Part shown: positions 2,931 through 58,526 of the stretch, in pieces
How the letters are laid out: each line of letters starts with the position of its first letter
Position numbering within the stretch: the stretch's first letter is position 1
DNA from: Chiloscyllium plagiosum
Taxonomy: Eukaryota
Reading direction: 5' to 3'
Length of the DNA: 64,000 nucleotides
Assembly (NCBI RefSeq): GCF_004010195.1
Contig: NC_057758.1
Coordinates: forward strand, 8,225,353 to 8,289,352
Translations under genes and position numbers: made by a program
Notes under the pieces: model-generated
The model's database searches: none
What the model was told of the DNA's origin: nothing
What the model saw: only the letters and a program-made list of their open reading frames with translations

Positions 2931-5526
2931 TTATTCCCTCCCTCCCACACTCTGAACCTGTGCGCCCTTGCAATTGAAACTGTGATCCTGATTCAAAAAT
3001 ACTGAAACCTCTATAAATACGTGCCTTGCTGCTTGTTGGCAGTGCCAGCAACAGATTTAATACTTGTCATTTGCAATGTTCTGCTGGACTGAATTAACAA
3101 TGTTCATTCCCCAGTTGCAATCTTGGACATCACCGCTCTGTACGCATTCAGTATTGGTCCATTTCTTATGGCCCTGCCCTGTTTTAGTTGGTTCACACTT
3201 GCTTTCACAGTTGATGGATTTACATTTCTGGTCAGACATAAAATCCAGATACTACAGGGAGAGAATAGCGAATGCGGCTGTAGGATGCTGCGAGTGCTGT
3301 CAGTCTGTTACGCGCAATTCATGGTATTTTGTATTTGAGACTTCTTTTATTCCTTAAAATGTGCCGTGATTTTGCATCTTAACAGTATTATTCCGCTTTC
3401 TTCTGATCAGTCTATGATTTGATTTGATTTGATTTATTGTCCTGTGTAACTAAATATAGTGAAAAGATTCTTTGTGTTCAGTAGAAGAAGATCATAGAGT
3501 GAAATCTGACGTGCAGATGAGAGGGGTTAAAAAAGTTTCCAGAGTAACCCATGCATATTACAACACACAAAACGGAGACGCGGCAATATCAACATGTAAA
3601 TGCTTGACACAAATAAACACAGATCGAATAAAGTACATCTTTTCCAACTGATTATAAGATAATTCTAATGTACATATTCTAGATTTATACTGTATGTACC
3701 ATCAGATATAATGCAGTGTGAGTACTTATCCAAGATAATTACACGTCACACTATATTTGTCTGATGGAAATAAAAAAAGAAATCACTTACCCCGATGTTT
3801 CTAAACCTAACTTCTTGTATCTCTCAGTGAAGGATGATATAACAAAAAGTGACTAAACCAAACTTTGCTATGCAGTGTACTCATATTGTAATCAGTCAAA
3901 ACTGTGGCAAATGAGAACAGATTCAATGGATCATCAAGACTGGCAGGTATATTTATGTGTGGCGGTCAGTTGACACATAAAATATGATGATAAAGAAAAG
4001 ATAATCACCGAGTGACTTCCATCGACATCTAATCATTTAATTTATGTATTTTCAATAGAACATTCGTAAACGCCCTCAAGGATACTTATCAAGCATTTTC
4101 TTTCAACCAATTAGATTAGATTACTTACAGTGTGGAAACTGGCCCTTCGGCCCAACAAGTCCACAACGACCCTCTGAAGCCAACCCACCCATATATTTAC
4201 CTAACCTGCACATCTTTGGACTGTGGGAGAAAACCGGACCAAACCCACTCAGACACGAGGAGAATGTGCAAACTCCACACAGGCAGTCGCCTGAGGCGGG
4301 AATTGAACCCTGGTCTCTGGCTCTTTGAGGCAGCAGTGCTCACCACTGTGCCACCGTTGCAGCCACACATATGCCATTATATGTAACAAAGGAAATCATT
4401 TAGAGCAAATGTTTTATTTTGGAATTACATAACTTCCACAGTGTTTATGAATCTGTCAGATTTCTGTAGTCTGAGCAAAACAAGAAAAGACTTGCCCGTT
4501 CAGCCTCTGGGAGAATGACTTCTCTTGGAAATGAGTAAATTCTGGCAAACATGTTAAAATTTATTCATGAACATTAAAACACAGTTAAATATTTTCTTAC
4601 ATAACCAACACTGGAGTGATAGTTTTACAAGTAACACCAACAGCTGCAAGTATAGGGTAAAACATACCCTCTGTCTGTTAGATTACTGACTACTCCAAGT
4701 TGGCTCTTATTTTGTGGATTCACTGATGGTTACTGCTGAAAAAATAGACGCATATTCAATGCAAGTCACTTTTATATTGAGCAATCGCTCCCGTGATATT
4801 ACTAATTTGTTTGAGTGTCACACTATTAATTTAGAGTAATCGAAACAAGAATAAAATCAACTGCGTTGATTTCAAATCACGTTCTATGATTCTCTGTCGA
4901 ACCAGATTATAAATTCTACATGTGCCGCATACAAACTAAATCAGACACTCAATGCAAAGTGGGGTATACGGTCACAAAATTAGGAAATCTCTTGCTGGAA
5001 AAGCCATTCAGTCGTTGCAAACGCATGTGCAGAAGAAGAGTCAGCTAAAGTCTGGATCTTACTGTACGTATGTCTATCTTTACCTTTCTTCCAAATGGAG
5101 AGAGTAATCAAGAGACACGGAGTAAGAAATGATCTGTATGGAATGATTTGGATACATGACATGTGGTGGACAGATTAACATGAGGAAGACAAAAATACAT
5201 ATAGTGGGAAAGGCATTCGGGATGCGGTGACCAGAGATGTGCAGTGAAACTTTAAGGTGATTTAACAACAGTTTTCCGCTGAAAGCAACACCCGAAACCC
5301 AGGGAATACATGTCAAGTCGAACAGAATTACTTGAGGGAGGAAAGAAAACAGTAAACATTCCAGTGTAGAATTCTTTACTGGGACATTGTGCCGGCGTTA
5401 TTTCAGATTTCCAGCGTCCACCATAAGTTACTTTATGCTTAATGCTTTGGAGAGATTAAAAATGCAAACCTTCCAACACAACCACCTTCAAAAGCAACGC
5501 CATTCCCACTATCGAAGGTCTTCCAT
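2931..5526 (-). pseudogene. Cys-rich defensin-like pseudogene B2 (exons 5526-5470, 5133-5084, 3251-2931)
   Basis: Signal-like exon M/GRPSIVGMALLLKVVVLE+G|GTTTGC (1-nt frameshift). A 50-nt exon CAG|...|GTAAAG (phase 1 to 0) ends in GRK. A phase-0 exon after CCCTGTAG reads YLDFMSDQKCKSINCESKCEPTKTGQGHKKWTNTECVQSGDVQDCNWGMNIVNSVQQNIANDKY*ICCWHC. The splice phases are mutually consistent. Confidence 0.65.
4112..4362 (-). mobile_element. HE1-like tRNA-derived V-SINE
   Basis: Reverse complement of ggtggcacagtggtgagcactgctgcctca...gtgtggagtttgcacattctcc, with an aatct tail. Confidence 0.85.
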
Positions 5527-6079
5527 TCTCATGTATTGGGCGTGTGCTCGTTATGTTCGATTGAAAGATGACCTGTTCTGAATCATTGACCAGACCTGAC
5601 ATAGTTAAATATATATTGGATGAGTGGGCAATGAACTGATGGAAAGTAGGGATGAATAATAACTTCTGGCCCAACCAATAAGCACATCGTTCTTTATCAT
5701 AGCGATGAAAGAAAACTGTTTGCAAAATTTCCGCAGTGGTATGAATAGTCTCTTGTATTGTTTGATCAACTTAACATTGGACACGATTCTCTTTGAAGTA
5801 CCGGCTAATATTCTCCTTGACTGCTCTCTTACCCGCTGAACTTGGATACTTGAACTTGAACATGACATGGAATTTTATTTTTAGCAGTGGTTATGGGGCG
5901 TGTGTTTTACTGGTTGGCCAGCATTCATTGCCGATCCTTACTTCCTTTCAGAACACGGTGATGAGCATACATCTTGAACGGCTGCAGGCCAACAATGATA
6001 TCAGGAAGTGATTTTGGCCCAGCGACAGTGACGCAACAACTATATAGTTCCAAATATATTTGCTGTAGATCTTCTGTAG

Positions 6080-7270
6080 GATTCAGCCGTTGTAGCATTG
6101 GATCAGAGCCGGAACAACAAGCGAGTAAGTGCAGGGAGTAGGGACAAATGTGAGACTGTGATAGGCATAGGTTAGAATTAGAATAGGTGGAGTGACGTCG
6201 CTGGGCTCGGAGTGACTGGAGGAGACAGAGGCACAGATAGGTAGTGAGTTAATGAAAACGTTTGGAGAAAGCAGGGTACTTGTGATTTGTGACGTTAACC
6301 GTTCTGTTATTGATTGGGACTCGCTTAGACCCAGGGGATCAGATGGAGACAAAATTATTGGATGTGTCCAGGAGGATTGCTTTTGAGACAGTACATTGAC
6401 AATACAACGAGAGACGAGGCCATACTAGACTTGAGATTACTGAATGAGGCAAAACAGTTGATCAGTGTTTCAGTAGGAGAGCGTTTTGGACTGAGTGACT
6501 ATAATTTCAGAAGATTTCGAGCAGTCATGGACAAGAGTGGCCGTCTGATGAGAGTGTTAAATTCAGAAAAGACCAATTGCGTTTAATTAGATAATGACTG
6601 GTGAATGGGGATTGGACGGTTATTTGAGGGCCAATCTGTGTCTGGAAATTTTGAGGCCTGACAAGATTCGGAATTGTGGGTAACAAGGCGAATTGCAAGC
6701 TTAGTTAAAAGGGGTAAAAATAAGAGTACAATATATCTAGGCAGTTACAAACTGACAAAGCACGTTGGGAGTACAGAGTAAATTAGTAAGGAGGTTAAAT
6801 GTGGAATTAGGAATCCTAAAAACGACCACGAAATGTCTTTAGCTAACAGGGTCAAGGAGAATCCCAGGACTTTTCATGCATAGATGAGAAACAAGAGTAT
6901 AGCAAGGAAAGAATAGGCATACCCGAGAATAAAGGGCGTGCAGTTGAAATTATGCATGGACCACAAAAATTGGAAATATGTTTCATGAAAACATTGCATC
7001 GGTATTCACTAATGGAGATGTGCGAGGGAAGAACTTCCAGCAAGATGGGTAGGAATCTGGAACACACTGCCACATGAGATGATGAAAACAATCACGTTGG
7101 CAATATTTAAAAGCCATTTGGATCATTACGTGAATAGGGAGGGACTAGAGGGATGCAGACTGAATAAGGACATAAGGCTTGTGTTTTATTTTAATGAGGG
7201 CATAATGTTCGGCGAGGGTTTGGAAGGCTGAGTGCCTGTCCCTGTGATATACTTCCTTTTGTTTGTTCTA
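6080..7270 (+). mobile_element. Degraded, internally deleted CR1-clade LINE (endonuclease region joined to 3' end)
   Basis: Motifs LRQYIDNTTRDEAILDL, VGERFGLSDYN and RVKENPRTF, then a CR1-like 3' tail. Inverted copy at ~59985-61080. Confidence 0.75.
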
Positions 7271-8680
7271 AGTCAGGATATGAGTGGCTTGGAGGAAACC
7301 TTGCAGGTGATAGCTCCCCCATTAATCTGCTACACTTTTTCTTGTAAGGCAAATTTGTTATGAATTTTGACAGTGCGATCTGAGTGAAATTTGCTGAATT
7401 TTGACATGAGCTTTCGATATAAAGTACACACTATTGCTCCTGAGCTTGGGCGTTCGAGCGTTTGGATAGTTGGGAATATAATGCCATTCATGCACTGCTT
7501 TGTCCTGGATGGTTCAAAACTTCTTAAGTGTTGTTACAGCTGCACTTAACCACACAATGATGTGGTAGCCCATCACACTTATGATCTGTACCTTTTAGAT
7601 TATGTAGAGGCTTCGGGGAGTTAAGACGTGAGTTATTCGCCACTGTATTTCTCGTTTCTGATCTCTTCCTGTCGGTAATGTGTTTACGTGGTGAGTCCAG
7701 TTGAGTTCCTTATCAGATATAAAGCACAGATGTTCATTTTGAGGACTTATTGATTGTAACAACATTGACTGAGTCGGGTCAATTGTTAGATTGTCTCTTA
7801 TTTGTAGGGGTCATAATTTGGCATGTGCACGACGTGGTTGTGACATGCAACTTGTCAGTTGAGGGTGTGGTTCCTGAAACGACAGCAAACCAGGCAACGT
7901 TCGAGGAGCAGGAATATCGATGTTTTGGGCAAAAGCCCTGAGGTAGCGCTTTAGTCTGAAACGTTGATTTTCCTGCTCCGCAGATGCTGTCTGGCCAGTG
8001 GTGCTTTTCCAGACCACACTCTGGGTTCTTATCTCCAGAATCTGCAGTCTTCTGTTTGCCTTGCCACTTGTCAGCCTAGCCTAGACATCGTACTCATATT
8101 GTTGCATTTTAAAATGGATTGCTTCCGTAACTAGGTAGATGCAAATTATGATGAATATTGGGCAGTCATCAGCAACATCCGTAATCATGACGTTATGGTA
8201 GAGTAGCTGACGATAATTTAGCCTTGGTCACTATCCTGAGGAGAGATGTTCTGGTTCTGAGATTACTGACCTCCAACAAACTTGACATTTGGCATATCTT
8301 ATGATTATCAACCTAACCAATGGATAGTTTGCCCCTTGATATCCATTGACACCAGTTTTGCGACCTTCATGTCAGCTCTGAAATTTAGTTTATTTTGTCG
8401 ATGTTTGAAACAAGTCTGAACAGTAATTGGATCTTCCCCAATCCTTTCCTTCCGTGTCACTGAGTCTCATTTCTGAACAGTCTCCCATATATAAATCAAG
8501 CACTCACAACCACCTTGTTAAGGGGGAAACTAAAGTTGGGCAATAAATGCTGGATAGCCAGAGATGCCCACGTGGCATGAGTGAGTAAAAAAGATGCATG
8601 TCTGTAACTTCTCCGCCCATTAAAACTGATTTCTGATTGACTTATTTTTATAATTCTTGAACAAGATTTTATTAGAAGAA

Positions 8681-8683
<3 letters not shown>

Positions 8684-8762
<79 letters not shown>
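8684..8762. repeat. (CA)n microsatellite
   Basis: Seen directly. The paralogous tracts at 47412-47424 and 58452-58520 differ in length. Confidence 0.98.
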
Positions 8763-8766
<4 letters not shown>

Positions 8767-8829
8767 GAGTTATTTTTCAAAAGCTGCTGTCGAATGCGAG
8801 ATTAACACTGATGTTTTCTCCTGTGGTAG

Positions 8830-9360
8830 TATTCCTTTATCTCTTCCCAGTGTTTCTCGGATGGGGGCACATTCAAGGCCCCCATCTCTGCCATCGGTCA
8901 CGTTTTGTCCAATGAATTCTTGGGACCCGAGAATTGCTCCAACCGACTAGAATCTCCTCCATTGGTTTGCCACATTGCAGCCCACTCTGGATGGTTCGAC
9001 CCTCTCGTCAGATAGACATACCCAGAAGATGGTTTGGAACTGTCAGGGATGATGGTTTGCATTCTCACGGGATGAATGTGTTAATGAACTTGTCTGTTGG
9101 TCAGTGAGGGCACGGAATAGCTACAGGAATCAGACGTATCAATATAATCGTCTCGCCATTTTGTGGTCATCCTGGTATGTCTGGAGATCTCTGTGCAGAG
9201 CAACCCTTGCTCAATTTCCTGCTTCTACCCCTGCCATGTTTATTCCAACCTAACTCACCATCATTCAGCAAATCATGCTGGATTGCACTTGTGTATGTGC
9301 AGGATTACATCAGAACTGACTCTCCAACAGTGTGGTGCTCCACCAGATCTGGCTTTCCAG
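8830..9360 (+). pseudogene. Decayed exon D1 with ~3 tandem beta-defensin-like motifs
   Basis: Reads QCFSDGGT[F]KAP..ENCSNRLESPPLVCH; KKMVWNCQG*WFAFSRDECVNELVC[W]; VCLEISVQSNPCSISCFYP..KSC[W]. Missing Cys positions are often one base from a Cys codon (TTC, TGG). Frameshifts are needed. Confidence 0.45.
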
Positions 9361-9884
9361 TACCGAGTGCTGACCTCAGTGCAGCCCATCCGACAGACTG
9401 ATTTTTTGCTCCCTCATTACTGACACTTTGACATGACTGTGCTCAGTGCAGCTCAGAGCGGCTTGTAAATTCTCATGACTCCCCGTTCTATTCAAGTTAC
9501 ACTGACACTCCGATAATACGGCGCTCCCACAGTTTTAGCCCGTTGACAGTGAGATCATTTTCTCAGTGTGAGCTCTCGGAAACTGCGGTACTCTCTTGTT
9601 GGTCAACCTCGACTCGCTCACATTCATTACCACTGACGCCTGACAATGTGAAGCCCCATTTGCACTTAGCAGCTGCTGATACACGCATAAGGGACCATTG
9701 TCGTTCACTTGGTCATTAAGCCTGTTGCCTCATTCCATAGAATCATGCGATTGTGAAACTTAAATGCAGAATTTGACCATATTGCTCCTGGACATGCTCC
9801 AACATTTGATCAGAGCTCATGCGTTCCAACCGACCACACCCCTATGGTAACTCGTGATCGGCTTACCAATCAAGAGCCTGTCTA

Positions 9885-10750
9885 TCTGGATACTGACGAA
9901 GGATTTAGTAGGTTGCAGAGGGACATAGATAGGATGCAGAGCTGGGCTGAGAGGTGACAAATGGAGTTTAATGCGGACAAGTGTGTGGTGATTCACTTTG
10001 GCTGGAGTAATCGGGATGCAAAGTACTGGGCGAATGGTAGGATTCTTGGGAGTGCAGATGAGCAGAGAGATCTCGGTGTCCATGTACACAGATCCATGAA
10101 AATTGCCACACAGATTGACAGGGTTGTTAAGAAAGCAAACAGTGTTTGGACTTTACTAATAGAGGGATTGAGTTGCGGAACCAGGAGATTATGCTGCAGC
10201 TGTACAAAGCTCTGATGCGGCCACACTTGGAGTATTGTGTACAGCTCTGATCACCGCATTATAAGAAGGATGCGGAAGCTTTGGAAAGGGTGCAGAGGAG
10301 ATTTACTAGGATGTTGCCTGGTAGGGAAGGAATGTCTTACGAGGAAAGGCTGAGGGCCTTGAGGCTGTTCTCGTTATAGAGAAGAGGGTTGAGAGGTGAC
10401 TTAATAGAGACAAAAAAGATAATCAGAGGGTGAGATAAGGTGGACAGGGAGAGCCTTTTTCCAAGTATGGAGACGGCAAACACGAGGGGACACAACTTTA
10501 AAGTGAGGGGAGATAGGTATTAGACAGATGTCAGAGGTAGTTTCGTTACTCAGACAGTAGTAAGGGTATGGAATGCTTTGCCTGCATCGGTAGTAGATTC
10601 GCCAAGTTAAAGTGCATTTAAGTCGTCATTGGACATACATGGAATGGTGTAGGTGGGATAGGCTTCACATTAGTATGATAGGTCGGCGCAACATCGAGGG
10701 CCGAAGGGCCTGTACTGCGCTGTAATGTTCTATGTTCTATATTCTATGTT
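9885..10750 (+). mobile_element. 5'-truncated CR1/HER1 LINE 3' end
   Basis: LQRDIDRMQSWAER, MEFNADKCVVIHFG, EQRDLGVHVH, RPHLEYCVQ; tail of (ttctatg)n repeats. Confidence 0.9.
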
Positions 10751-11274
10751 CCTTTCTTAAATGCTCTCAATGACGTGGCCTCCCTAGCCTTCTGAGCAAT
10801 AGGTTTCACGATTCGCCAATTCTCTGCCTGAAGAAGTTATTCCTTAATCAATTCTCGAGGTGTGCCCCGTTACTCTGAGGCTTTGCCCTCGGATCCCAGC
10901 CTTTCCCAAAGACGGATACATCTTCGTCATGCCCATTCTATCCAGGTCGCTCAGTATTCTGTAACTTTTAATCAAATCCCTGATCATGGCTGATTTCATT
11001 CTAAATCATATTCCTCTGCATTTGCGATAATCTTTCATTCCTTGATCTTGAACAGTGTTCCGCCCTCTGTGTTTTCTCTCTCTCTCTCTCTCTTTCTCAA
11101 TTTCTCCCTCCACCCCCCTTCTTTTTTCTCTCTGCATGTATTTGCTGCCAGAATAGTTCGGTTTCTCTGTGCAGAAAAGTCCAAGCAGACTCGAAATGCT
11201 AAGTCTGATTTCCTCTCTCTACGCTAAAACTGCCAGACGTCCTGTGCTTTCACCAGTGTTCTCTGTGCATTTGG

Positions 11275-11605
11275 CACCGAATGCGGCATGGACAAGGACT
11301 GGTTAACAGTTCAGCTGGTTTTAAGTTACACCTCGCGGGGAACATCGGATTAAGCAGTCCGACCTTACATAGATTCCACAGTCAACTTAAGAATCAACTG
11401 AAGTCAGTATCCCCATAGCTCTCGTGCGGCACTTGTGTCTGATATCGTCGATTCTTGCAACAGTGTTCTTCAGGCGGGCACAGCCTCAGAACAGGTTATA
11501 CTTTAAATGTTGGGCACACATTGACTGAACACATGCCACCAGCATTTTTACAGTCATTTTCATAATCGGCAAGGAAGCAAACAGTTTGTTCGTCTGTTCT
11601 GCTCG
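11275..11605 (-). pseudogene. Beta-defensin-like exon A1 (complete six-Cys domain with an internal stop, plus a decayed second domain)
   Basis: Polypyrimidine acceptor TTCCAG|CG (phase 1). Reads ASRTDEQTVCFLADYENDCKNAGGMCSVNVCPTFKV*PVLRLCPPEEHCCKNRRYQ = C-x6-C-x4-C-x11-C-x5-CC with GGxC and CP; TAA at 11498-11496. Second motif: DCGIYVRSDCLIRCSPRGVT*NQLNC*PVLV/PC[R]. Confidence 0.8.
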
Positions 11606-11639
11606 CTGGAAGCATGGGGGAGAAAGTCGAATTCCAAGA

Positions 11640-13500
11640 TCACAGAATCCCCCAGAATACTTCGGGCGCACTCGGACGCTATTCGACCGGCTGTGTACAC
11701 TGCTGTTCTATCCCCTGATGTAAACTTCGTGACTCTTGCCCCAGCTCTCTGCATCTCATTTCCACACCAACAAATACCCGACTTCCGTCTTGAAAGTATT
11801 GCCTTGAGTATACCTCCAGGCCATGACGTGGCCTTCCGAACTTGCCTTGAGTATACCTCCAGGCCATGCATTCCAGACCCTAAGTACTTACTGGGTGGAA
11901 AAGATCTTACTCTCTTTATTATTGTTTCATTTGCACCCACCTTAACGATACGACCATACGCCCTTCTCATTGTTGATCCTTTTACAAATGGTAAAGCCTT
12001 CTCCCTGTGTACACAGTTCAGCTGCACGCCATGATTTTGAAATCTCCGTCATATCTCCTCTCAGCTATTTTCTCTCCAGGGAAAGCAGTTGCACCAGTTT
12101 ATTCTTTCTTTGCTATTGTCTCCCTTTGTCCTACCAAAGTCTATTATCTGCGCACAGATACATGCATGTCCCTTTGCGCCTGCCCCCCTTTAAATTTCTG
12201 CCACCTGTACCATGCAATCCCAATTTTATATTGCCTTTCAGTGATCTTCCAATAAAGTGCATCCCCTTTCACTTCATTGAATTGAAATGTGTCTACCTCT
12301 TACCTTCCAACTCTACCAATTTGCCAGTGTCCTTTTGAATCTCTGCACTGGCCTTCCCATAGTTTACAGTTCTACCAGGTTTCGAGTCATCTGCATGCGT
12401 CTAAATTGTTAACTGCTCAGTTCTCCAGATGCAATATCACTAATGCCCTGTATTACTGAAGTATAGACTTCCTCCTTTTGCATTTTTTTCCTATGTTAAC
12501 AATACAATATTCTCTAGACTGTATGAATCTGTGAGTCTGTGTGATCTGCATAAAAAGAAAGTCAAATTTATGGTCGAGCTGATTTCTCTTCTCGTCGGGG
12601 TATCGAGTACGGCAGGCTATAGTGTGAGAATAAGGGACTTCAGAATTAAGACAGAAATGTGCAGAAATTACATCTCTGCAAGCTTGAGACTCAATTAAAT
12701 TTGCCAACTCCTCTTTTATCCCTCCAGTAGAAGATATCCTTCCCGTTGCGTGATGACCAGGAGTACACACAATATTTCAGCTGTGCCCAAACTGAAGTTC
12801 TGTACAGATCCAACAAAACCTCCTGCTTTTATAATCGATGTCTCGAATGGTAAAGACAACACGGTCCTTCTTAATTCTACCATTAACATGTGGACACGCC
12901 CCGAAGATTTCTCTATTCCTTTGAGCCTACTCATGACCCAGGAATCATGAGTACTCTCCTACCTTGATTCTTCTTCCCAAGAGCGTTTCCTAAACTTATC
13001 GATGTTAAATCCAATTCTGCACTCATGTTCAGAACTGTCTTATTGAGTTATTTTTCTTTCGGGCTATCTTTCTGCCATCCACAAATTTGGAAACAGTATC
13101 TCACGTCCCTTTGTGTGAACGGTGTTGAAAAACAGCAAACATTTGAGGGTTCAGCCGGCCACTTTCTGTTGCATGACTTGTAAAGTTGAACACGCAAGAT
13201 GCCAACCTCCTGTTTACATCCTGCCAGAGCAATCATTCTTCTCTCCATGCCTGTATATACCATGCTTGCACACTGAACATACTATATCTGCGCAGGAGCA
13301 CCTTATATCCAGCCTTCATGAAATTTACTTACACCACGTCCAAGGGTTACCTTCTGTCTACAATGCGCGTTGTCAATGAACTCAAAAAGCTTCCTCAAAC
13401 CATGATCATTCAACAAACCATGTCGTTTTTACAATGATTGCCTTTGAAATCATCCAAATGCTCTGTTACAAATTCCTAACAATACATTCATTGAGACAAA
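11640..13500 (-). mobile_element. Nested degraded CR1 fragments in the intron of pseudogene A
   Basis: An SKFADD-like RT remnant (VSKFVDGRKI), LRGDM motifs, and a CR1 3' tail ending in attctgtga just upstream of the exon A acceptor. Confidence 0.7.
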
Positions 13501-14179
13501 GTTTTATCTAACTCGGTGAGACCCAAGCAACTGCAATTGGTGAAAATTGAGAAATGGGACATTTGGAAATCTGGTGGTGCCGAAAGGGAGGGGGAGGGTA
13601 GGTTGCATTTAAATAATTCAAAAACAAATGTTATTGAAATTGAGGCATTACTTGAATATACATACAGAACAACATCAGCATATCTGTGACTATTGCTTGG
13701 CACAGGCGAGCCAATTCCAGTCAGTGCACATGGAGCATTTTGAATCATTTCGGTGTAGTGGAGGTAACAGAGTTGGTTTGCTGGAGGGAAGGTGCAGGGA
13801 ACATGCCAGTGTCTCATTATGATAAATGATCCCAGCGTTAACCGTGTTGTGTGAGAGGCGAAGAACAAGGAAAAGGAGAAGGATAGGCAATCGATCAAGC
13901 GAGTGATCATTTGATGCAATCATGGCTGATCTTTTCCCAACAGCCAACTCCACATTCCAGTCCCATCTCTTCAGCTGAAGTCAGGTAAAAATCTGTCCAC
14001 CACTTCTTTATGTTTACTAGTATCCCGGCATTCACTGCATCCCGCGTCAGTGAGTTCCACCAATCGATGGTTCTTTCAGAAAAAAAAATCTTCCTCATCT
14101 ATGCTCTGAATTCATACCCTTTGTTTTAAAACTTGGACCTATCCTTCTACAAATCCCGACCTGAGGAAGCATCCCTTTT

Positions 14180-14481
14180 GGGCGGTACGGTGGCACAGTG
14201 GTTAGCACTGCTGCCTCACAGCGCTCAGAGACCTGGGTTCAATTCCTGACTCAGGCGACTGACTGTGTGGAGTTTGCACATTCTCCCCGTGTCTGCGTGG
14301 GTTTTGTCCGCTTGCTCCGGTTTCCTCCCACAGTACAAAGCTGTGCAGGTCAGGTGAATTGGCCATGCTAAACTGCCCGTAGTGTCAGGCGTAGGGGAAT
14401 GGGTGGGTTGCGCTTCGGCGGGTCGGTGTGGACTTGTTGGGCCGAAGGGCCTGTTTCCACACTGGAAGTAATCTAATCTAA
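14180..14481 (+). mobile_element. Full-length HE1-like V-SINE
   Basis: tRNA-like A/B boxes (tggcacagtgg, ggttcaattcc), V-domain gtggagtttgcacattctccccgtgtctgcgtggg, and an aatct tail. Confidence 0.9.
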
Positions 14482-15138
14482 TAATCCATTCTACGTACAC
14501 TTGCACAATCGTACTCACCATTTTTCAGACTCCGATTTGACTGCTTAAACTTTCTTCATAAGACAAATGTTCACTAATTGACGCAGTTGACTGAAACTCC
14601 TCTAAATTGCCTCCAGTATAACTATATACCTTCTCAAGTAAGGTGATCCAAATTCTCCGCAATATTCCAACGGCAGAGTCATTGATTCCTTCTACAGTTG
14701 CAGAAACACACTTCTTTTATAGTAGATTCGTTTAAGAATAAATTGGAAACACCAATTTATTCCTTCCTCCGAGGTGCTATCAACATTTGAGCGAATGTTA
14801 GATCCAGAGTGAAGTGGCTGCATTCTGTGCTGGAACAATTTTTATATCTTTTACATTCAACTGACTATTTCTGATAGAAGTGGTATCAGTTGGAAGTTTG
14901 AAAAAGCTGATTTCAATGTAAGGGGGTTGCCCAGATAATCACACAGAAGAGCGGATGGAAGATGTCAGGAGTAAGCAATGATTGGTGTGCGGACCACTGA
15001 CAGAAGTGTTCACTACTGGAAGAATATTAATGAATAAATTGCGAAACTCATCATGATCCAACAGGCAAACTCTGGTTTTATTTTGTGAAAGTGAATGATT
15101 TTTAAAGGAAATTAAATGAATTTAGGACCCTGTCTCAC

Positions 15139-16239
15139 TTCTGAAATAGTTTTCTGCGATGTCGGAATTGAGCGATTGAATGGCCTTCTCATATACCTGC
15201 GAAAGATGCAGTGGTATAAAAAATAATATGGATCTTCGATTTTGGGAAGTAAGAAAAGTGCATCAGAAGCAAAGGACAAAAAGAGCATCAGGAAAGAGCA
15301 CCATGGGCTCACCGATCTCGGGACTCATAGCAGAAGCAGTAATGCAAATGTTAGAACAAACAGTCTTTCCACAAATTCAACCCAAACTCTGGGTCAGATA
15401 CGTTGATGACACCTTTGTAATCATTAAAAACACGGAAATAGAGAATACACACCGGATCATCAACTCCACACTCACAGGAATCCGATTCACGAGAGAGGAA
15501 GAAAAGGACAACCAACTCCCATTCCTAGACGTGAGGGTAGAGAGAACACCAGACGGAGAATTCACCACTAAGGTAGACAGGAAAGCGATACACACAGACC
15601 AAGCCCTGAACTATGAAAGCAACCACCCCAATACACACGAACGAAGTTTCATCAAGACACTATTCAAAAGGGCCACAACACACTGCAGCACACCAGAACT
15701 GCAAAACGAGGAAGAGGAACACCTATACAAGATATTCGCTAAAAACGGATATCCTCGCAATTTCATCAACAGATGCCTAAGGGAAAGACAACAGATCGAG
15801 GACATGCAGCAACCCAAAGGACTAGCCACACTACCATACAGCAAGAACATCTCTGAAATGACAGCCAGACTACTGCGACCACTAGGACTTATAACAGCAC
15901 ACAAACCAACAGCCACTCTCAGACAACAACTCACCAAAACCAGCCAGGGAATTCCTAGAAGCATGGCACTCATCCACAAACTCCATCAACAAACACATAG
16001 ACCTGGACACAATATACCGGCCGCTACAGCGGACAGCTGAAACTGACAACCGGAAGCGGCAGGGACAGGCCACTATAAATGCCGGAGGAAACACCACAGA
16101 AGCGCTTCACAAGAGGCTCCCAAGCAGTGAGGATGTCACCGAGACAGGGGACGAAACGTTTGCAACAAAAACTTCCAGCTCTGCGAACAGAACCACAGCA
16201 GCATCAGGAAACGTATTGCGAAGGGTCCTGCCATCAACA
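15139..16239 (-). pseudogene. 5' exons of pseudogene A1: signal-peptide exon split by a Penelope insertion, plus a 58-nt exon (15196-15139)
   Basis: Removing the insertion restores MLMAGPFAIRFLMLFLSFAS. Downstream, TTTCGCAG|VYEKAIQSLNSDIAENYFR+A|GTGAGA. No intact donor follows the signal segment. Confidence 0.5.
15296..16199 (+). mobile_element. Penelope-like element, 5'-truncated and internally deleted, with 12-bp TSD
   Basis: RT motifs MGSPISGLIAEAVM, WVRYVDDTFV, FTREEEKDNQLPFLDV and LNYESNHP. The sequence jumps to an EFLEAWHS tail, so most of the GIY-YIG domain is missing. TSD agcatcaggaaa at 15284-15295 and 16200-16211; empty site at 41148-41159. Confidence 0.92.
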
Positions 16240-35563: not shown

Positions 35564-36330
35564 ATGTCATCGCGGTATCCTGCCTATTCTCTGACCGTTG
35601 CTTCCGTCTCTGTCATTATGTTAGAACTATGATCTGACTGGGAAATGAAATTTGGACAACTTATGTTTGTTGATGTCTTTTAGTTTTATTCATATGTGTG
35701 AGAAAGCAGTGCGTCAGGACTCATTGTATTAAGACCATGAAATGAAGATTGAATGGACAGATCTCTCCATTCGGAAACTCAAAGGCTTTCCAGAGGTGCA
35801 TGTTTCCTTTTCTTCATCGCGGGAAAGAAAGGCATGCAGCACACTTAGAAGTGTGGGCATGCCCCATCGGTCCTTACTGAAATTGTCTCATTACATGGTA
35901 CTTTACTGCAGTAACTTCGCTCTAAAACACATGGAATGATTGGATCTAGGAGACAGAACAAAAGAGAAAAAATATTCTTCAATGTTAACATTCCACACAC
36001 AGGACATCCTCCTGTGGTCTCACTGGGGGGCATAAAGCCAGAAAGTGCAGATTGCAGTCTCTCGTTTCTAATAGTAATTTGTTGGGGTCGCAGCAGTACA
36101 TATTACTTGAAGTGGTTTCCATTATTGTTTGTGAATACCAGACCTGCATGCAGTGCTGCAGCTCTGACCTGCTATTGATATAGTCGATTGGGAACTGATC
36201 AGTTTGTTCACAGTGTGCAAATAGTTAGGAAGACGGACTGCAACGTTTCTGAGCACTTTGCTTCAGGAAGTGAGAATCGATAGGAAACATCAGCTGGCTT
36301 AAAGGTGAACACATCCCCTGGTCCGTAACT
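35564..36330 (+). pseudogene. Defensin-like pseudogene E1 (signal-like 35564-35626; Cys exon from 36003)
   Basis: MSSRYPAYSLTVASVSVIMLE, donor lost. ACACAG|GA (phase 1) then GHPPVVSLGGIKPESADCSLSFLIVICWGRSSTY[Y]LKWFPLLFVNTRPACSAAALTC[Y]*. A second decayed motif follows. Confidence 0.55.
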
Positions 36331-37455: not shown

Positions 37456-37760
37456 TTAACTGGGGTACTTACAATTTTTCTGGCCTTCCACCAACACAAG
37501 CTTTCCAATCAGCAAAAGCAGTGTCAACCACTTCATCACTGTTGTGGCGAGAGGAAAAATGACAAGACTGGAACACAGATCATCATTTTATGGTTTCAAA
37601 GATGGTCCTGTTTTTCATCATAGACATAACTATGACTGGCATCAGTTTGAATTATGAAATTAACTCACTAACTGAGACAGGGAGTGAATGGAACGGAAGT
37701 TCAAAGCTATCTCCTTAAAGTTTACATGATGTACCGAACAAAGTTACCGGCCTGAGTAAT
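37456..37760 (+). pseudogene. 5'-deleted defensin-like exon F1
   Basis: QKQCQPLHHCCGERK; lacks the ~283 bp present in the paralog at 50763-51045. Confidence 0.5.
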
Positions 37761-41118: not shown

Positions 41119-44100
41119 ATGTTGATGGCAGGACTCTTCGCACTCGGTTTCCTGATGCTCATTCGGTCCTTTGCTTCTGATTCACTTTTCTTACTTCCCA
41201 AAATCGAAGATCCGTATTATTTTTATAGCACTGCATCATTCGCGGGTTTATGAGAAGGCCATTCAATCCCTCTATTCCGACGTCGCAGAAAACTCTTTCA
41301 GAAGTGAGACAGGGTCCTAAATTCATTTATTTCTTTAAAAATCATTCACTTTCACCAATTGAAACCTGTGTTTGCCTGTTGGATCATTGTGAGTTTCGCA
41401 ATTTATTCATTAATATTCTTCTACTAGTGAACACTTCTGTCAGTCGTCCGCACATCAATCATTGCCTACTCCTGACATCATCCATCCGCTCTTCTGTGTG
41501 ATTATCTGGGCAACCCCCTTACTTTGAAATCAGCTTTTTCCATCTTCCAACTGATACCACTTCTATCAGAAATCGGACAACTGAATTAAAAAGATATAAG
41601 ATTTGTTCCAGCACAGAGTGCAGCCACTTAGCTCTGGATCTAACACTAACTCAAGTGTTGATAGCATCTCGGAGCAAGGAATAAATCGGTGTTTCCAATT
41701 TATTCTTAAACGAATCTACTATAAAAGAAGTCTGTTTCTGCAACGGTAGAAGGAATCAATGACTCTGCCGTGGGAATATTGCGGAGAATTTAGATCACCT
41801 TACTTGAGAAGGGATGCAGTTATATTGGAGGCAATTCAGAGGAGTTTCAGTCAATTGAGTCAATTCGTGAACATTTGTCTTGTGAAGAAAGTTTAAGCAG
41901 TCAAATCGGAGTCTGAAAAATGGTGAGTACGATTGTGCAAGTGTGCGTAGAATGGATTATTCGATGAGATTACTTACAGTATGGAAACAGGCCCTTCGCC
42001 CCAACAAGTCCACACCGATCCGCCGTAGTGCAACCCACCCATTCCCCTACGCCTAACACTGCGGACAATTTAACACGATCAATTCACCTGACCTGCACAT
42101 CTTTGGACTGTGGGAGGAAACCGGCATGGATGAGGAAGAATTTTTTTTCTGAAAGAGCCATCGATTTGTGGAACTCGCTGACGCGGGATGCAGTGAATGC
42201 TGGGATACTAGTAAACATAAAAAAGAGGTGGACAGATTTTTACCTGACTTCAGCTGAAGAGATGGGACTGGAATCTGGAGTAGTCTGTTGGGAAAGGTTC
42301 AGCCATGATTGCATTAAATAATCGCTGGCTTGAGGGATTGCCTATCCTTCTCCTTTTCCTTGTTCTTCTCCACTCACACAACACGGTTAACGCTGGGATC
42401 GATTATTGTAATGAGACATTGGCATGTTCCCTGCACCCTTCCCTCCAACATACCAACTCTGTTACCTCCACTATACCGAAATGATTCAAAATGTTCCATG
42501 TGTACTGACTGTAATTGGCTCGCCTGTGCCAAGCAATAGTCACAGATATGCTGATGTTGTTCTGAATGTATATTCAAGCAATGCATCAATTTCAATAGCA
42601 TTTGTTTTTTTTAATTATTTAAAGGCAACCTACCCTCCCCCTCCCTTTTGGCACCACCAGATTTCCAAATGTCCCATTTCTCTGTTTTTCACCAATTGCA
42701 GTTGCTTGGGACTCACCGAGTTAGATAAAACTTTGTCTCAAAGAATATATTGTTAGGAATTTGTAACAGAACATTTGGATGATTTCAAAGACAATCATTG
42801 TAAAAACAACATGGTTTGTTGAAAGATCATGGTTTTAGGAAGCTTTGAGTTCATTGACAACGCGCATTGTAGACAGAAGGTAATCCTTGGACATGGTGTA
42901 AGTAAGTTTCATGAAGCCTGGATATAAGATGCTCCTTCGCAGATATAGAATGTTCAGTGTGCAAGCACGGTATATACAGGCATGGAGAGAAGAATGACTG
43001 CTCTGGCAGGAAGTAAACAGAAGGTTGGCATCTTGCGTGTTCAACTTTGCAAGTTATGCAACAGAAAGTGACCGGCTGAACCCTCAAATGTTTGCTGTTT
43101 TTCCACACCGTTCACACAAAGGGACGTGAGATACTGTTTCCAAATTTGTGGATGGCAGAAAGATAGCCCGAAAGAAAAATAACTCAATAAGACAGTTCTG
43201 AACATGAGTGCAGAATTGGATTTAACATTGATAAGTTTAGGAAACGCTCTTGGGAAGAAGAATCAAAGTAGGAGAGTACTCATGATTCCTGGGTCATGAG
43301 GAGGCTCAATGGAATAGAGGAATCTTCGGGGCGTGTCCACATGTTAATAGTAGAATTAAGAAGGACCGTGTTGTCTTTACCATTCGAGACATCGATTATA
43401 AAAGCAGGATGTTTTGTTGGATCTGTACAGAACTTCAGTTTGGGCACAGCTGAAATATTGTGTGTACTCCTGGTCATCACGCAACGGGAAGGATATCTTG
43501 TACTGGAAGGATAAAAGAGGAGTTGGCAAATTTAATTGGGTCTCAAGCTTGCAGAGATGTAATTTCTGTACATTTCTGTCTTAATTCTGAAGTCCCTTAT
43601 TCTCAAACTATAGCCTACCGTTCTCGATACCCCGACGAGAAGAAAAATCAGCTCGACCATAAATTTGACTTTCTTTTTATGCAGATCACACAGACTCACA
43701 GATTCATACAGTCTGGAGAATATTGTTTTGTTAACATAGCAAAAAACGCAAGAGGAGGAAGTCTATACTTCAGTAATACAGGGCATTGGTGATACTGCAT
43801 CTGGAGAACTGAGCAGTGAACAATTTCGACGCATGCAGATGACTCGAAACCTGGTAGAACTGTAAACTATGAGAAGGACATTGCAGAAATTCAAAAGGAC
43901 ACTGGCAAATTGGTAGAGTTGGCAGGTAAGAGGTAGACACATTTCAATTCAGAGAAGTGAAAGGGGACGCACTTTATTGGAAGATCACTGAAAGGCAATA
44001 TAAAATTGGGATTGGATGGTACAGGTGGCAGAAATTTAAAGGGGGGCAGGCGCAAAGGGACATCCATGTATCTGTGTGCAGATAATAGACTTTGGTAGGA

Positions 44101-45040
44101 CAAAGGGAGACAACTGCAAAGAAAGAATAAACTGGTGCAACTGCTTTCCCTGGAGAGAAAATGGCTGAGATGAGATATGACGGAGATTTCAAAATCATGG
44201 CATGGGGCTAAACTGTGTACACAGGGAGAAGGCTTTACCATTTGTAAAAGGATCAAGAATGAGATGGGTGTATGGTCGCATCGTTAAGGTGGGTGCAAAT
44301 GAAACAATAGTGAAGACAGTAAGATCTTTTCCACCCAGTGAGTACTTCGGGTTTGGAATGTATGGCCTGGAGGTATACTCAATGCAAGTTCAATTAATAC
44401 TTTCAAGACGGAAGTCGGGTATTTGTTGGTGTGGAAATGAGATGCAGAGATCTGGGGAAAGAGTCAAAAAGTTTACATCGGGGATAGAACAGCAGTGTAC
44501 ACAGCCCGCCGAATAGCATCCGAGTGCGCCCGAAATATTCTGGGAGATTCTGTGACCTTGGAATTCGACTTTCTTCCCCATGCTTCCAGCGAGCCGAACA
44601 GACGAACAAACTGTTTGCTTCCTTACCGATTATGAAAATGACTGTAAAAAAGCTAGTGCCATGTGCTCAGTCAATGTGTGCCCAACAGTTTAGGTATAAC
44701 CTGTTCTGAGGCTGTGCCAGCCTGAAGAACACTGTTGCAAGAATCGGCGATCTCAGACACAAGTGCCGCACGAGAGCCATGAGGATACTGACTTCAGTTG
44801 ATTCTTAATTTGACTGTGGAGTCAAAGTAAGGTCGGACTGTTTAACCGATGTTCACGGAGAGGTGTGACTTAAAACTAGCTGAATTGTTAACCAGTCCTT
44901 GTCCATGCCGCATTCGGTGCCAAATGCACAGAGAAGTCTAAGTAAGGTCGGACTGTTTAACCGATGTTCATGGAGAGGTGGGACTTAAAAAACCAGCTGA
45001 ATTGTTAACCAGTCCTTGTCCATGCCGCATTCGGTGCCAA
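41119..45040 (+). pseudogene. Beta-defensin-like pseudogene A2 (signal exon 41119-~41179, small exon 41246-41303, Cys exon from 44590)
   Basis: MLMAGLFALGFLMLIRSFAS. TTCCAG|CG then SRTDEQTVCFLTDYENDCKKASAMCSVNVCPTV*V*PVLRLCQPEEHCCKNRR, with two stops. The acceptor of the small exon is mutated. Confidence 0.75.
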
Positions 45041-45519
45041 ATGCACAGAGAACACTGGTGAAAGCACAGGACGTCTGGTAGTTTTAGCGCACAGAGAGGA
45101 AATCAGAATTAGCATTTTGAGTCTGGTTGGACTTTTCTGCAGAGAGAAACCCCAACTATTCTGGCAGCAAATACATGCAGAGTGAGAAATGAAGGGGGGT
45201 GGAGGGAGAGAGTGAGAAAGAGAGAGAGAGAGCGAGAGAGGGATAACACAGAGGGCGGAATATTGTTCAAGATCAAGGAATGAAAGATTATCGCAAATGC
45301 AGAGGAATATGATTTAGAATGAAAACAGCCATGATCAGGGATTTGATTAAAAGTTACAGAATACTCAACGACCTGGATAGAATGGGCATGACGAAGATGT
45401 ATCCGTCTTTGGGAAAGGCTGGGATCCGAGGGCAAAGCCTCAGAGTAACGGGGCACACCTCGAGAATTGATTAAGGAATAACTTCTTCAGGCAGAGAATT
45501 GGTGAATCGTGAAACTAAT

Positions 45520-46300
45520 ATGAAGCCCATCCCACCTACACTATTCCATGAATGTCCAATGACGACTTAAATGCACTTTAACTTGGCGAATCTACTAGCG
45601 ATGCAGGCAAAGCATTCCATACCCTTACTACTCTCTGCGTAAAGAACCTACATCTGACATCTGTCTTATACCTATCTCCCCTCACTTTAAAGTTGTGTCC
45701 CCTCGTGTTTGCCGTCTCCATTCTTGGAAAAAGGCTCTCCCTGTCTACCTTATCTCACCCTCTGATTATCTTTTATGTGTCTATTAAGTCACCTCTCAAC
45801 CTTCTTCTCTCTGACGAGAACAGCCTCAAGGCCCTCAGCCTTTCCTCGTAAGACATTCCTTCCATACCAGGCAACATCCTAATAAATCTCCTCTGCACCC
45901 TTTCCAAAGCTTCTGCATCCTTCTTATAATGCGGTGATCAGAGCTGTACACAATACTCCAAGTGTGGCCGTATCAGAGCTTTGTACAGCTGCAGCATAAC
46001 CTCCTGGTTCCGGAAATCAATCCCTCTATTAATAAAGGCCAAAACACCGTATGCCTTCTTAACAACCCTGTCAATCTGGGTGGACATTTTCAGGGATCTG
46101 TGTACATGGACACCGAGATCTCTCTGCTCAGCTTCACTCCCAAGAATCCTACCATTAGCCCACTACTTTGCATCCCGATTACTCCAGTCAAAGTGAATCA
46201 CCACACACTTGTCCGCATGAACTCCATTTGTCACCGCTCAGCCCAGCTCTGCATCCAATCTATGTCTCTCTGCAATCTACTACACCCTTCGTCAGTTTCC
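45520..46300 (-). mobile_element. CR1/HER1 3' fragment (paralog of 9885-10750)
   Basis: Inverted copy lacking the terminal tail. The same deletion is seen at 56565-57350. Confidence 0.9.
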
Positions 46301-46816
46301 AGATAGACAGGCTCTTGATTGGTAAGACGATCACGAGTTACTGTAGGGGTGGGGTCGGTTGGAACGCATGAGGTCTGATCGAATGTTGGAGCATGTCCAG
46401 GAGCAATATGGTCAAATTCTGCATTTAAGTTTCACAATTGTATGATTCTATGGAATGAGGCAGCAGGCTTAATGACCAAGTGAACGACAATGGTCCCTTA
46501 TGCGTGTATCTGCAGCTGTTAAGTGCAAATGGGGCTTCACATTGTCAGGCGTCAGTGGTAATGAATGTGAGCGAGTCGAGGTTGACCAAAAAGAGAGTAC
46601 CGCAGTTTCCGAGAGCTCACACTGAGAAAATGATCTCACTGTCAGTGGGCTAAAACTGTGGGAGTGCCGCATTATCGGAGTGTCAGTGTAACTTGAATAG
46701 AACGGGGGAGTCATGAGAATTTACAAGCCGCTCTGCACAGTCATGTCAAAGTGTCAGTAATGAGGGAGCAAAAAATCAGTCTGTCGGATGGGCTGCACTG
46801 GGGTCAGCACTCGGTA

Positions 46817-47347
46817 CTGGAAAGCCAGATCTGGTGGAGCACCACACTGTTGGAGAGTCAGTTCTTATGTAATCCTGCACATACACAAGTGCAATCCAGC
46901 ATGATTTGCTGAATGATGGTGAGTTAGGTTGGAATACACATGGCGGGGTAGAAGCAGGAAATTGAGCAAGGGTTGCTCTGCACAGAGATCTCCAGACATA
47001 CCAGGATGACCACAAAATGGCGAGACGATTATATTGATATTTCTGATTCCTGTAGTTATTCCGTGCCCTCACTGACCAACAGACAAATTCATTAACACAT
47101 TTATCCCGTGAGAATCCAAACCATCATACCTGACAGTTCCAAACCATCTTCTTGGCATGTCTATCTGACGACAGGGTCGAACCATCCAGAGTGGGCTGCA
47201 AAGTGGCAAACCAATGGGAGGAGATTCCAGTCGGTTGGAGCAATTCTCGGGTCCCAAGAATTGATTGGACCAAACGTGGCCGATGGCAGAGGTGGGGGCC
47301 TTGAATGTGCACCCATCCGAGAAACACTGGGAAGAGATAAAGGAATA
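46817..47347 (-). pseudogene. Multi-domain defensin-like exon D2
   Basis: Inverted paralog of 8830-9360 (RDKCVNEFVC[W]). Confidence 0.45.
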
Positions 47348-48257
47348 CTACCGCAGGAGAAAACATCAGTGTTAATCTCGCATTCGACAGCAGCTTTTGA
47401 AACATACGTTTGTGTGTGTGTGTGTTTGCTCTTCTAATAAAAACTTGTTCAAGCATTATTAATAAAAGTCAATCAGAAATCAGTTTTAATGGGCGGAGAA
47501 GTTATAGACATGCATCGTTTTTACTCACTCATGCCACGTGAGCATCTCTGGCTATCCAGCATTTAATGCCCAACTTTAGTTTCCCCCTTAACAAGGTGGT
47601 TGTGAGTGCTTGCTCGCCATGGTCTCACATTGCTATATGGGAGACTGTTCAGAAATGAGACTCAGTGACATGGAAGGAAAGGCCGGTTTGGATTGGGGAA
47701 GATGACTCAGAAATCCATTACAGTTCAGACTTGTTTCAAACATCGACAAAATAACTGAATTTCAGAGCTGAAATGAAGGTCGCAAAACTGGTCTCAATGG
47801 ATATCAAGGGGCAAACTCTCCATTGGTTAGGGTGGTAATCACAAGATATGCCAAATGTCAAGGTTGTTGGAGGTCAGTAACCTCAGAACCAGAACATCTC
47901 TCCTCAGGATAGTGACCAAGGCTAAATTATCGTCAGCTACTCTACCATAACGTCATGATTACGGATGTTGCTGATGACTGCCCAATGTTCATCATCATTT
48001 GCATCTACCTAGTTACGGAAGCAGTCCATTTTAAAGTGCAACAATATGAGTACGATGTCTAGGCTCGGCTGGCAAGTGGCAAGGCAAACAGAAGACTGCA
48101 GATTCTAGAGATAAGAGCCCAGAGTGTGGTCTGGAAAAGCATCACTGGCCAGACAGCATCTGCGGAGCAGGAAAATCAACGTTCAGATTAAAGCACTACC
48201 TCAGGGCTTTTGCCCAAAACATCGATATTCCTGCTCCTCGAACGTTGCCTGGTTTGC

Positions 48258-48866: not shown

Positions 48867-49640
48867 ATGTCATCGCGGTATCCTGCCTATTCTCTGACCA
48901 TTGCTTTCGTCCCTGTCATTATGTTAGAACTCTGATCTGAATGGGAAATGAAATTTGGACAATTTATGTTTGTTGATGTCGTTTAGTTTTATTCATATGT
49001 GTGAGAAGGCAGTGCGTCAGGACTCATTGTATTGAGACCATGAAATGAAGATTGAATTGGTGAGATGACAGATCTCTCCATTCGGAAACTCAAAGGCTTT
49101 CCAGAGGTGCATGTTTCCTTTTCTTCATCGCTGGCAAGAAAGGCATGCAGCACACTTAGAAGTGTGGGCATGCCCCATCGGTCCTCACTGAAATTGTCTC
49201 ATTACATGGTACTTTACTGCAGTAACTTCGCTCTAAAACACATGGAATGATTGGATCTCGGAGACAGAACAAAAGAGAAAAAATATTCTTCAATGTTAAC
49301 ATTCCACACACTGGATATCCTCCTGTGGTCTCACTGGGGGGCATAAAGCCAGAAAATGCAGATTGCAGTCTCTCGTTTCTAATAGTAATTTGTTGGGGTC
49401 GCTGTTGTACATATTGCTTGAAGTGGTTTCCATTATTGTTTGTGAATACCAGACCTGCATGCAGTGCTGCAGCTCTGACCTGCTATTGATATAGCCGATT
49501 GGGAACTGATCAGTTTGTTCACAGTGTGTAAATATTTGGGAAGACGGACTGCAACGTTTCTGAGCACGTTGCTTCAGGAACTGAGAATCGATAGGAAACA
49601 TCAGCTGGCTTAAAGGTGAACAGATCCCCTGGTCCGTAAC
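48867..49640 (+). pseudogene. Defensin-like pseudogene E2
   Basis: ADCSLSFLIVICWGRCCTYCLKWFPLLFVNTRPACSAAALTC[Y]*; acceptor mutated to CTG at 49311-49313. Second motif: QCVNIWEDG/CNVSE/RCFRN*ESIGNIS[W]LKGEQI. Confidence 0.55.
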
Positions 49641-50898: not shown

Positions 50899-51353
50899 AT
50901 TACAGAGAAAGGAACGACTGAAATATTAACGTGAATGAACACACATGATCAACCCAAATAGAAGCAAAGAGCATAGTGACCACCGTTCAAAGCAGTGCTG
51001 CCCTCGTTTGACCACATGAAGTTGTGCAAATCTCTGTAAGGAAGTTTAACTGGGGTACTTACAATTTTTCTGGCCTTCCACCAACACCAGCTTTCCAATC
51101 AGCAAAAGCAGTGTCAACCACTTCATCACTGTTGTGGCGAGAGGAAAAATGACAAGACTGAAACACAGATCATCATTTTATGGTTTCAAAGATGGCCCTG
51201 TTTTTCATCACAGACATAACTATGACTGGCACCAGTTTGAATTATGTTGAAAATTATCTCACTAACTGAGACAGGGAGTGAATGGAACGGAAGTTCAAAG
51301 CTATCTCCTTAAAGTTTACATGTTGTACCGAACAAAGTTACCGGCCTGAGTAA
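50899..51353 (+). pseudogene. Two-domain defensin-like exon F2
   Basis: Strong poly-T acceptor ending CTTCCAAG|AT. One frame reads KLCKSL*GS[L]TGVLTI[F]LAFHQHQLSNQQKQCQPLHHCCGERK = C-x6-[C]-x6-[C]-x14-C-x5-CC. A second TCCTEQSYRPE* lies at 51318-51353. Confidence 0.6.
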
Positions 51354-55100: not shown

Positions 55101-55753
55101 ACACATTTCAATTCAGAGAAGTGAAAGGGGACGCACTTTATTGGAAGATCACTGAAAGGCAATATAAAATTGGGATTGGGTGGTACAGGTGGCAGAAATT
55201 TAAAGGGGGGCAGGCGCAAAGAAACATGCATGTATCTGTGTGCAGATAATAGACCTTGGTAGGACAAAGGGAGACAACAGCAAAGAAAGAATAAACTGGT
55301 GCAACTGCTTTCCCTGGAGAGAAAATGGCTGAGAGGAGATATGACGGAGATTTCAAAATCATGGCATGGGGTTGAACTGTGTACACAGGGAGAAGGCTTT
55401 ACCATTTGTAAAAGAATCAAGAATGAGATGGGCGTATGGTCGCATCGTTAAGGTGGGTGCAAATGAAACAATAGTGAAGACAGTAAGATCTTTTCCACCC
55501 AGTGAGTACTTAGGGTTTGGAATGCATGGCCTGGAGGTATACTCATGGCAAGTTCAATTAATAGTTTCAAGACGGAAGTCGGGTATTTGTTGGTGTGGAA
55601 ATGAGATGCAGTGATCTGGGGAAAGAGTCACGAAGTTTACATCGGGGATAGAACAGCAGTGTACACAGCCGGCCGAATAGCATCCGAGTGCACCCGAAAT
55701 ATTCTGGGGGATTCTGTGACCGTGGAATTCGACTTCCTTCCCCATGCTTCCAG

Positions 55754-58455: not shown

Positions 58456-58526
<71 letters not shown>

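Follow-up and report, generated by a model that had tools for sequence, protein, structure and literature searches.

The window analysed here is a stretch of 64,000 nucleotides (G000:C49:8225353-8289352) of the 9.98-Mb scaffold C49. It contains three copies of a six-cysteine exon, hereafter family A (A1, A2 and A3), and two copies of a second six-cysteine family, family B, which are arranged among duplicated blocks and assembly gaps as follows.

3203..15295, unstranded: inverted segmental duplicate with A1, 91-94% identical to 41148-48257 and 53219-64000
11394..11566, minus strand: copy A1, six-cysteine exon; on alignment with its paralogs, what was in the ancestor the final coding exon (phase 1) of a beta-defensin-like gene
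11552, minus strand: Cys1 of A1, whose natural stop TGA lies at 11396-11394
11496..11498, minus strand: premature TAA of A1 in the Cys3/Cys4 interval; the 14 copies that do not belong to the window clade all have GAA
11567..11568, minus strand: ruined ancestral splice acceptor of A1, CG; AG in 11 of 12 paralogs with homologous DNA
11567..11607, minus strand: former intron end of A1, by paralog comparison, including the AG at 11607-11606 previously taken as the acceptor
11650..14200, minus strand: sequence preceding A1, which aligns collinearly with every paralog (ungapped identity about 77-79%); no signal-peptide exon found
16247-16746: 500-N gap after the A1 block
35779..35945, minus strand: family B copy 1, exon 2, spacing C-6-C-4-C-11-C-5-CC, with a TAA ahead of the CC where most paralogs have Gln
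37473..37536, minus strand: first exon of family B copy 1 (64 nt), resembling a signal peptide and with a GTAAGT donor in phase 1
41148..48257, unstranded: duplicate block with A2, which matches the block of A3 at 94-97% identity
44629..44801, plus strand: copy A2, same exon as A1; CG acceptor 44627-44628, TAG 44691-44693, TAA 44697-44699
48258-48757: 500-N gap at the end of the A2 block
49090..49256, minus strand: second exon of family B copy 2, with the TAA of copy 1 and a GAG acceptor
51063..51126, minus strand: family B copy 2, exon 1, 64 nt, signal-like
53219..64000, unstranded: duplicate block with A3
55793..55965, plus strand: copy A3, same exon as A1; CG acceptor 55791-55792, TAG 55855-55857, TAA 55861-55863

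All three window copies of family A retain six cysteines when their stops are read through, spaced C-6-C-4-C-11-C-5-CC. They lie where the initial annotation had placed them, A1 on the minus strand (11605->11394, no strand having been given) and the copies at 44590-44801 and 55754-55965 both on the plus strand, and the stops that it described are likewise present, a TAA common to the three copies (in A1 at 11498-11496) and a TAG common to A2 and A3 at a site where A1 reads AAA. With two stops allowed, the six-cysteine pattern has five matches in the window, namely the three family-A and the two family-B exons, which share the spacing 6-4-11-5-0; by chance 0.01 matches per window are obtained, with a maximum of 1 (100 order-3 Markov simulations). 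The product of the A1 exon is near neutral (6 K+R, 7 D+E) and ends in a C-terminal tail of about 20 residues. The two families lie on opposite strands of a module some 24 kb in length, which extends from about 19043 to 45500 in the window and is repeated on scaffold C49 at 3.8, 4.1 and 4.7 Mb with roughly 70-77% identity. The window also contains an old inverted repeat (1777-2359 and 3037-3607, 71% identity) and, beside an assembly gap, a 286-codon open frame on the plus strand (15180-16037) with a weak RVT_1 match below the cut-off (E 6e-4).

The resemblance to vertebrate beta-defensins (PF00711, PF13841; hBD-1, hBD-2 1fd3 and duck AvBD3 7lzl) comprises the C-6-C-4-C start, the GxC and CP motifs, the terminal CC followed by basic residues, a mature peptide borne on one exon after a phase-1 intron, the clustering of duplicating genes and, as predicted for A1, a helix-plus-strands fold. 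In beta-defensins the third disulfide is 3-6. The 1-5 and 2-4 disulfides and a two-exon layout are described in PMC5381368. Compared with hBD-1 the fit is imperfect, the Cys3-Cys4 and Cys4-Cys5 gaps being 11 and 5 in A1 and 9 and 6 in the hBD-1 alignment, which requires gaps of two residues and one residue; "near-canonical", as the exon had been described, is thus too generous a term. A1 further departs from vertebrate beta-defensins by its long C-terminal tail, a Pfam score under the cut-off, its lesions and a leader exon that was not found.

Read with X at the stop, A1 matched only Defensin_beta in Pfam (E 0.14, 12.6 bits against a cut-off of 21), and the intact paralog L044 also stayed below that cut-off with 14.0 bits. 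In a sequence search of the PDB the top four matches of A1 were hBD-1 variants (E 0.43-0.62), and a profile of six family-A exons matched no defensin there. The AF2 model of A1, built on a 14-row alignment, displays an N-terminal helix and strands (pLDDT 70.5, pTM 0.41). Among its 23 Foldseek rows 21 are beta-defensins, one is crotamine and one is unrelated, with a best E of 0.48 (probability 0.77) and none at E<=0.001; among 22 VIA-align rows (Z 2.0-3.6) 11 are titled beta-defensins, with Z<=3.3, and the top one is an unrelated luciferase with Z 3.6. An HMM search and structure prediction with the stop repaired had been proposed in the initial annotation, and with the stop masked most of the Foldseek rows are beta-defensins, but none of the scores is significant.

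Stronger support for a beta-defensin identity comes from the genomic context than from the peptide's own scores. The exon belongs to a cluster of related genes, as beta-defensin genes do; all six cysteines align with those of further subfamilies, in which 9 of 13 sampled members match Defensin_beta (best E 1.8e-5); two exons, one of them on C49, exceed the Pfam cut-off; and families A and B have the same spacing. We consider it very improbable that another cysteine-rich family, e.g. carboxypeptidase inhibitor I68, mimics the spacing: one paralog scores alike for Inhibitor_I68 (E 0.051) and Defensin_beta (E 0.052), and a tick carboxypeptidase inhibitor reaches Z 2.6, but the aligned cysteine columns, the Defensin_beta matches and the intron, which is in phase 1 and in the same position, all speak against such mimicry. 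Judged from the sequence, family A likely encoded a six-cysteine peptide of the beta-defensin family. No protein relative at E<=10 was found with the family-A alignment or with a 13-member alignment of all subfamilies, in a shared-word search covering only proteins of 23-98 and 18-98 residues, respectively. A HMMER search of 1.84 billion representatives with a profile of families A and B returned two matches, both long repetitive proteins matched over 14-19 positions, which were rejected.

For family A, 14 matches in the genome came from a DNA search and 32 at E<=10 from a protein search, and 18 distinct copies were counted at E<=2e-6, of which some on small contigs may be allelic duplicates; no further strong copy emerged from a repeat search with an intact paralog as query. 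The copies of the window form a monophyletic clade (FastTree support 1.0) of four members rather than the three that lie in the window itself, the fourth (G000:C49:8207014) being located 18 kb before it, within a 2-kb block (L031, G000:C49 ~8205990-8208025) that ends at a 2.3-kb N gap. TAA is found in the four copies of this clade and GAA at the same site in all 14 others. The acceptor preceding the mature peptide is CG in all four, whereas among the other 14 copies it is AG in 11 and AT in one, the remaining two having no homologous DNA; in the 11 AG paralogs a pyrimidine tract and the AG stand immediately 5' of the codons leading to Cys1, forming a phase-1 acceptor. A second shared lesion therefore accompanies the stop that had been held solely responsible for the death of the gene. 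TAG is present in three of the four copies and a +1 frameshift in one, the fourth copy, which carries both, the frameshift falling before Cys2. This frameshift results from an A8 run in place of A7, and the same slip arose independently in C91024.

The acceptor proposed in the initial annotation (TTCCAG|CG at 11607-11606) does exist, 39 nt upstream of the ancestral one and in frame with it, but its position is intron sequence in the paralogs. Its AG is specific to the window clade; the paralogs read TTCCAC there, TTCCAAG in one case and CAG in none. An in-frame stop interrupts the stretch between the two sites in 7 of 11 readable paralogs, which identifies that stretch as intron, and an exon starting at the upstream site would hold seven cysteines instead of six. 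One could suppose that after the loss of the ancestral AG this new AG was used, adding 13 residues and a seventh cysteine, and that the TAA killed the gene later, in which case a single lethal stop would be correct after all. In favor of such a shift, the new AG is in frame in each of the four copies and is followed by 39 stop-free nucleotides, and 7 of the 11 readable paralogs carry an in-frame stop there. Nevertheless, the copies on C33 and C81400 are also open over the 39 nt while lacking that AG and keeping the true acceptor, so an open frame arises by chance in this stretch, and an unpaired cysteine is unusual for the beta-defensin family; we regard the shift as improbable.

Since the stop and the destroyed acceptor occur in all four near-identical copies, most likely a single inactivation was followed by carriage in segmental duplications. 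The earlier claim that the gene died before these duplications is supported, both lesions being found in four of four copies that are about 5% apart. It would be overstated if the copies were haplotypes assembled in tandem across gaps, and the 500-N gaps that separate A1 from A2 and A2 from A3 alike would suit such an artefact; yet divergence between the blocks is 3-9% and indels are numerous, and the contigs of X3 and of X12/X15 each hold more than one version, which makes it an improbable account. Contigs from X3 (same species label, another sample), X9 (organism B) and X12/X15 (organism C) cover the family-A exon and include pieces resembling the window clade that are about 90-95% identical; the versions in X3 and in X12/X15 are 91-95% identical to A1. 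In X9, both lesion sites are overlapped by two contigs, one window-like and the other from a distant paralog. Among the 40 of 133 differences listed, apparently those at which nearly all of the run depth differs, neither lesion site appears, and the missing differences suggest that the window-like contig of X9 carries both lesions. If so, the death would predate the lineage splits, and close relatives would not have the intact ortholog that had been hoped for.

Divergence after the duplications is that of a neutral sequence. A1 and A2 differ at 9 of 117 exon positions (0.077) and 164 of 3075 flank positions (0.053), with no sign of constraint, and nonsynonymous p-distances among A1, A2 and A3 are 0.06-0.07, against 0.04-0.06 for the flank, a comparison of low power over 39 codons; the fourth copy has only two nonsynonymous differences from A1. 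As expected of a duplicated pseudogene, the disabling changes have no counterpart in the paralogs and the exon diverged neutrally afterwards. Between A1 and five distant paralogs, with flank distances taken from BLAST pieces, the exon differs by 0.18-0.23 and the flank by 0.21-0.23, none of these comparisons being significant, and in other paralog pairs the exon is slightly better kept than the flank (Fisher p 0.04-0.17, six non-independent pairs). Set against four distant paralogs, A1 has a dN/dS of 0.23-0.45; ratios close to 1 or exceeding it occur in several other pairs, all on 39 codons and small counts. The values, of low power, fit weak past constraint on the exon sequence followed by neutral drift. 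The range 0.23-0.45 indicates that the lineage retained some constraint after the old duplications, and this in turn implies that a first exon existed.

For family A, no conserved signal-peptide exon turned up when 12 copies were aligned over some 3.7 kb of upstream DNA, or when the modules were scanned more widely; assembly gaps interrupt the upstream DNA. The collinear sequence upstream of A1 (11650..14200) we take, by its motifs, to be a decayed CR1-type LINE. Three candidates for exon 1 were examined and rejected: at 42305-42407 (plus strand) the GT donor is present in A2 only and the site is at an apparent LINE 3' end; a donor near 13332 (minus strand) has no open hydrophobic frame and presumably, by motif, sits among reverse-transcriptase-like residues; and the candidate at 33269 (plus strand) is the antisense of a LINE reverse-transcriptase remnant. 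Applied to seven intact exons from other subfamilies, the same scan gave signal-like candidates for five but not for the remaining two, and with such an insensitive scan the absence of exon 1 is suggestive only.

A reading on which family A lost its first exon long ago must be weighed here, whereby all 18 copies would be non-functional, the five unbroken ones merely unhit, and the TAA would have killed nothing. Besides the missing signal exon, it draws on the lesion or truncation found in 13 of the 18 copies and on exon conservation barely above that of the flank among the other paralogs. The five copies with AG, six cysteines and an open core (C33, C54855, C89534 and C49 at 3.82 and 4.13 Mb), however, belong to a family in which cysteines are largely retained over three lineages about 22% apart, and the dN/dS of A1 against its four distant paralogs, even if not that of several other pairs, argues against long-standing orphan exons, as do the insensitivity of the scan and the gapped upstream DNA. 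We hold this reading to be possible, though doubtful. The unbroken C33 exon (L010/L041, G000:C33:28043793-28043966) is on a separate 44-Mb scaffold and shares only about 3.4 kb of DNA, ending at an N gap, as either a transposed fragment or a misplacement. Remoter, frameshifted family-A-like exons with 36-38% identity were observed at L069 (G000:C95972, near 3133, minus strand) and L059 (G000:C99685).

Taken as a whole, we conclude with a probability of roughly 0.86 that a real beta-defensin-like second exon was pseudogenised by at least two changes before a four-fold duplication. Of the initial annotation, the beta-defensin-type second exon stands as the most likely identity, while the single lesion and the good acceptor do not. 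We hypothesize that the ancestor was a secreted three-disulfide peptide, its exon joined by phase-1 splicing to an exon for a signal peptide, in the manner of the neighboring subfamilies, and that one inactivation of the gene by acceptor loss and the stop would have been followed by block duplication and then by decay through the TAG and the frameshift. The copies would have spread passively with the block, likely not by selection on the exon, and any present transcript would yield at most a three-cysteine fragment with no known leader.

Such a fragment recalls the primate theta-defensins, for which a nonsense change in the mature peptide is a precedent (PMC4018336). That a functional, theta-defensin-like half-defensin with three cysteines arose here from the stop is by analogy conceivable: TAA and TAG each leave Cys1-3, and a stop in the last exon would likely escape nonsense-mediated decay. 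However, the acceptor is destroyed, the leader exon was not found, the fourth copy is frameshifted before Cys2 and the copies diverge at the neutral rate; such a gene would be expected to keep both its leader and its splicing and to have a stop sparing a conserved three-cysteine segment, which is not what the locus displays, and we give the idea hardly any credence. The closest parallel is offered by the theta-defensin pseudogenes of primates (DEFTP; retrocyclin), whose copies share one common nonsense change and were duplicated as block passengers (PMC4018336). In DEFTP the stop is in the signal peptide, the mature part is intact and a functional DEFA1 'driver' lies in the block (PMC4018336), whereas in the A copies it is the disulfide core that the stop interrupts, the acceptor is gone as well, and the family-B genes linked to them in the window carry a stop of their own. 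Unlike the theta-defensin case, the unit duplicated here showed no intact gene. Defensin pseudogenes are common, accounting for almost one third of primate alpha- and theta-defensin genes (PMC4018336), and the dead copy itself is ordinary gene turnover.

Family B yielded 54 matches at E<=5 in the genome, a number of matches and not of genes. Four of the 30 loci read have the TAA of the window, and 14 have Gln at that site together with six cysteines and a YAG acceptor. The donor of its exon 1 is GT in the window and GC at 3.81, 4.14 and 7.83 Mb of C49. Related exons are spread from 0.8 to 8.9 Mb of this 10-Mb scaffold and over many small contigs, and the exon at 5.71 Mb gave, as a query, 67 matches at E<=2, again not gene counts. 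Within 60 kb (G000:C49:7823001-7883000, L169-L174) there are five stop-free six-cysteine exons of four subfamilies, two of them preceded, at a distance of about 1 kb, by a signal-like first exon of 94 nt. The Pfam cut-off for Defensin_beta is passed by L114 (G000:C49:5713638-5713751, 24.3 bits) and L112 (G000:C101976:16705-16809, 25.0 bits), the two exons best suited to tests of expression and activity. In the role once given to A1, that of anchor for the cluster, the A1 exon is weak, and other members on the scaffold serve far better, for instance the one at G000:C49:5713644 with 24.3 bits against the cut-off of 21. Neither is A1 the easiest peptide to resurrect, given at least two shared lesions, a first exon that was not found and 5 of 18 family copies already unbroken; with intact natural relatives at hand, repair of the dead exon is pointless. 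In the search with the 5.71-Mb exon, a defensin-like subfamily has many near-identical matches over the large scaffolds C7, C8, C11, C23, C32 and C38, and may travel with a mobile element or by repeated duplications; the two copies read, L123 and L128, lack the terminal CC.

Scaffold C49 harbors a large, apparently unannotated beta-defensin-like family. Teleost beta-defensin genes usually have three coding exons, and the neighboring subfamilies here, by comparison, look two-exon. The nearest fish group with described members is that of the teleost beta-defensins, with seabream and tilapia, in a section of PMC6795676, and beta-defensin is not among the shark peptides in that section of this review of cartilaginous-fish antimicrobial peptides. 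No title describing shark beta-defensin genes was found among those listed for the literature searched, in which subscription fish-immunology journals are thinly covered; the term 'defensin' has no occurrence in the main text of PMC7677710 and is present in PMC10707392 in a reference title only.

The exon copies are a clean birth-and-death record, in which acceptor loss and a stop were followed by block duplication and further decay. The dead exon is probably one fossil in a very large, fast-turnover beta-defensin repertoire of a cartilaginous fish, centred on the 10-Mb scaffold and comprising at least six subfamilies and well over 100 raw exon matches, many of them unbroken, which is missing from the protein collections searched and the literature found, and which would extend an expansion of mammalian scale to sharks. 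The wider family matters more than the dead copy, as its intact members are candidates for expression and activity tests and are also useful to date the origin of the vertebrate beta-defensin cluster.
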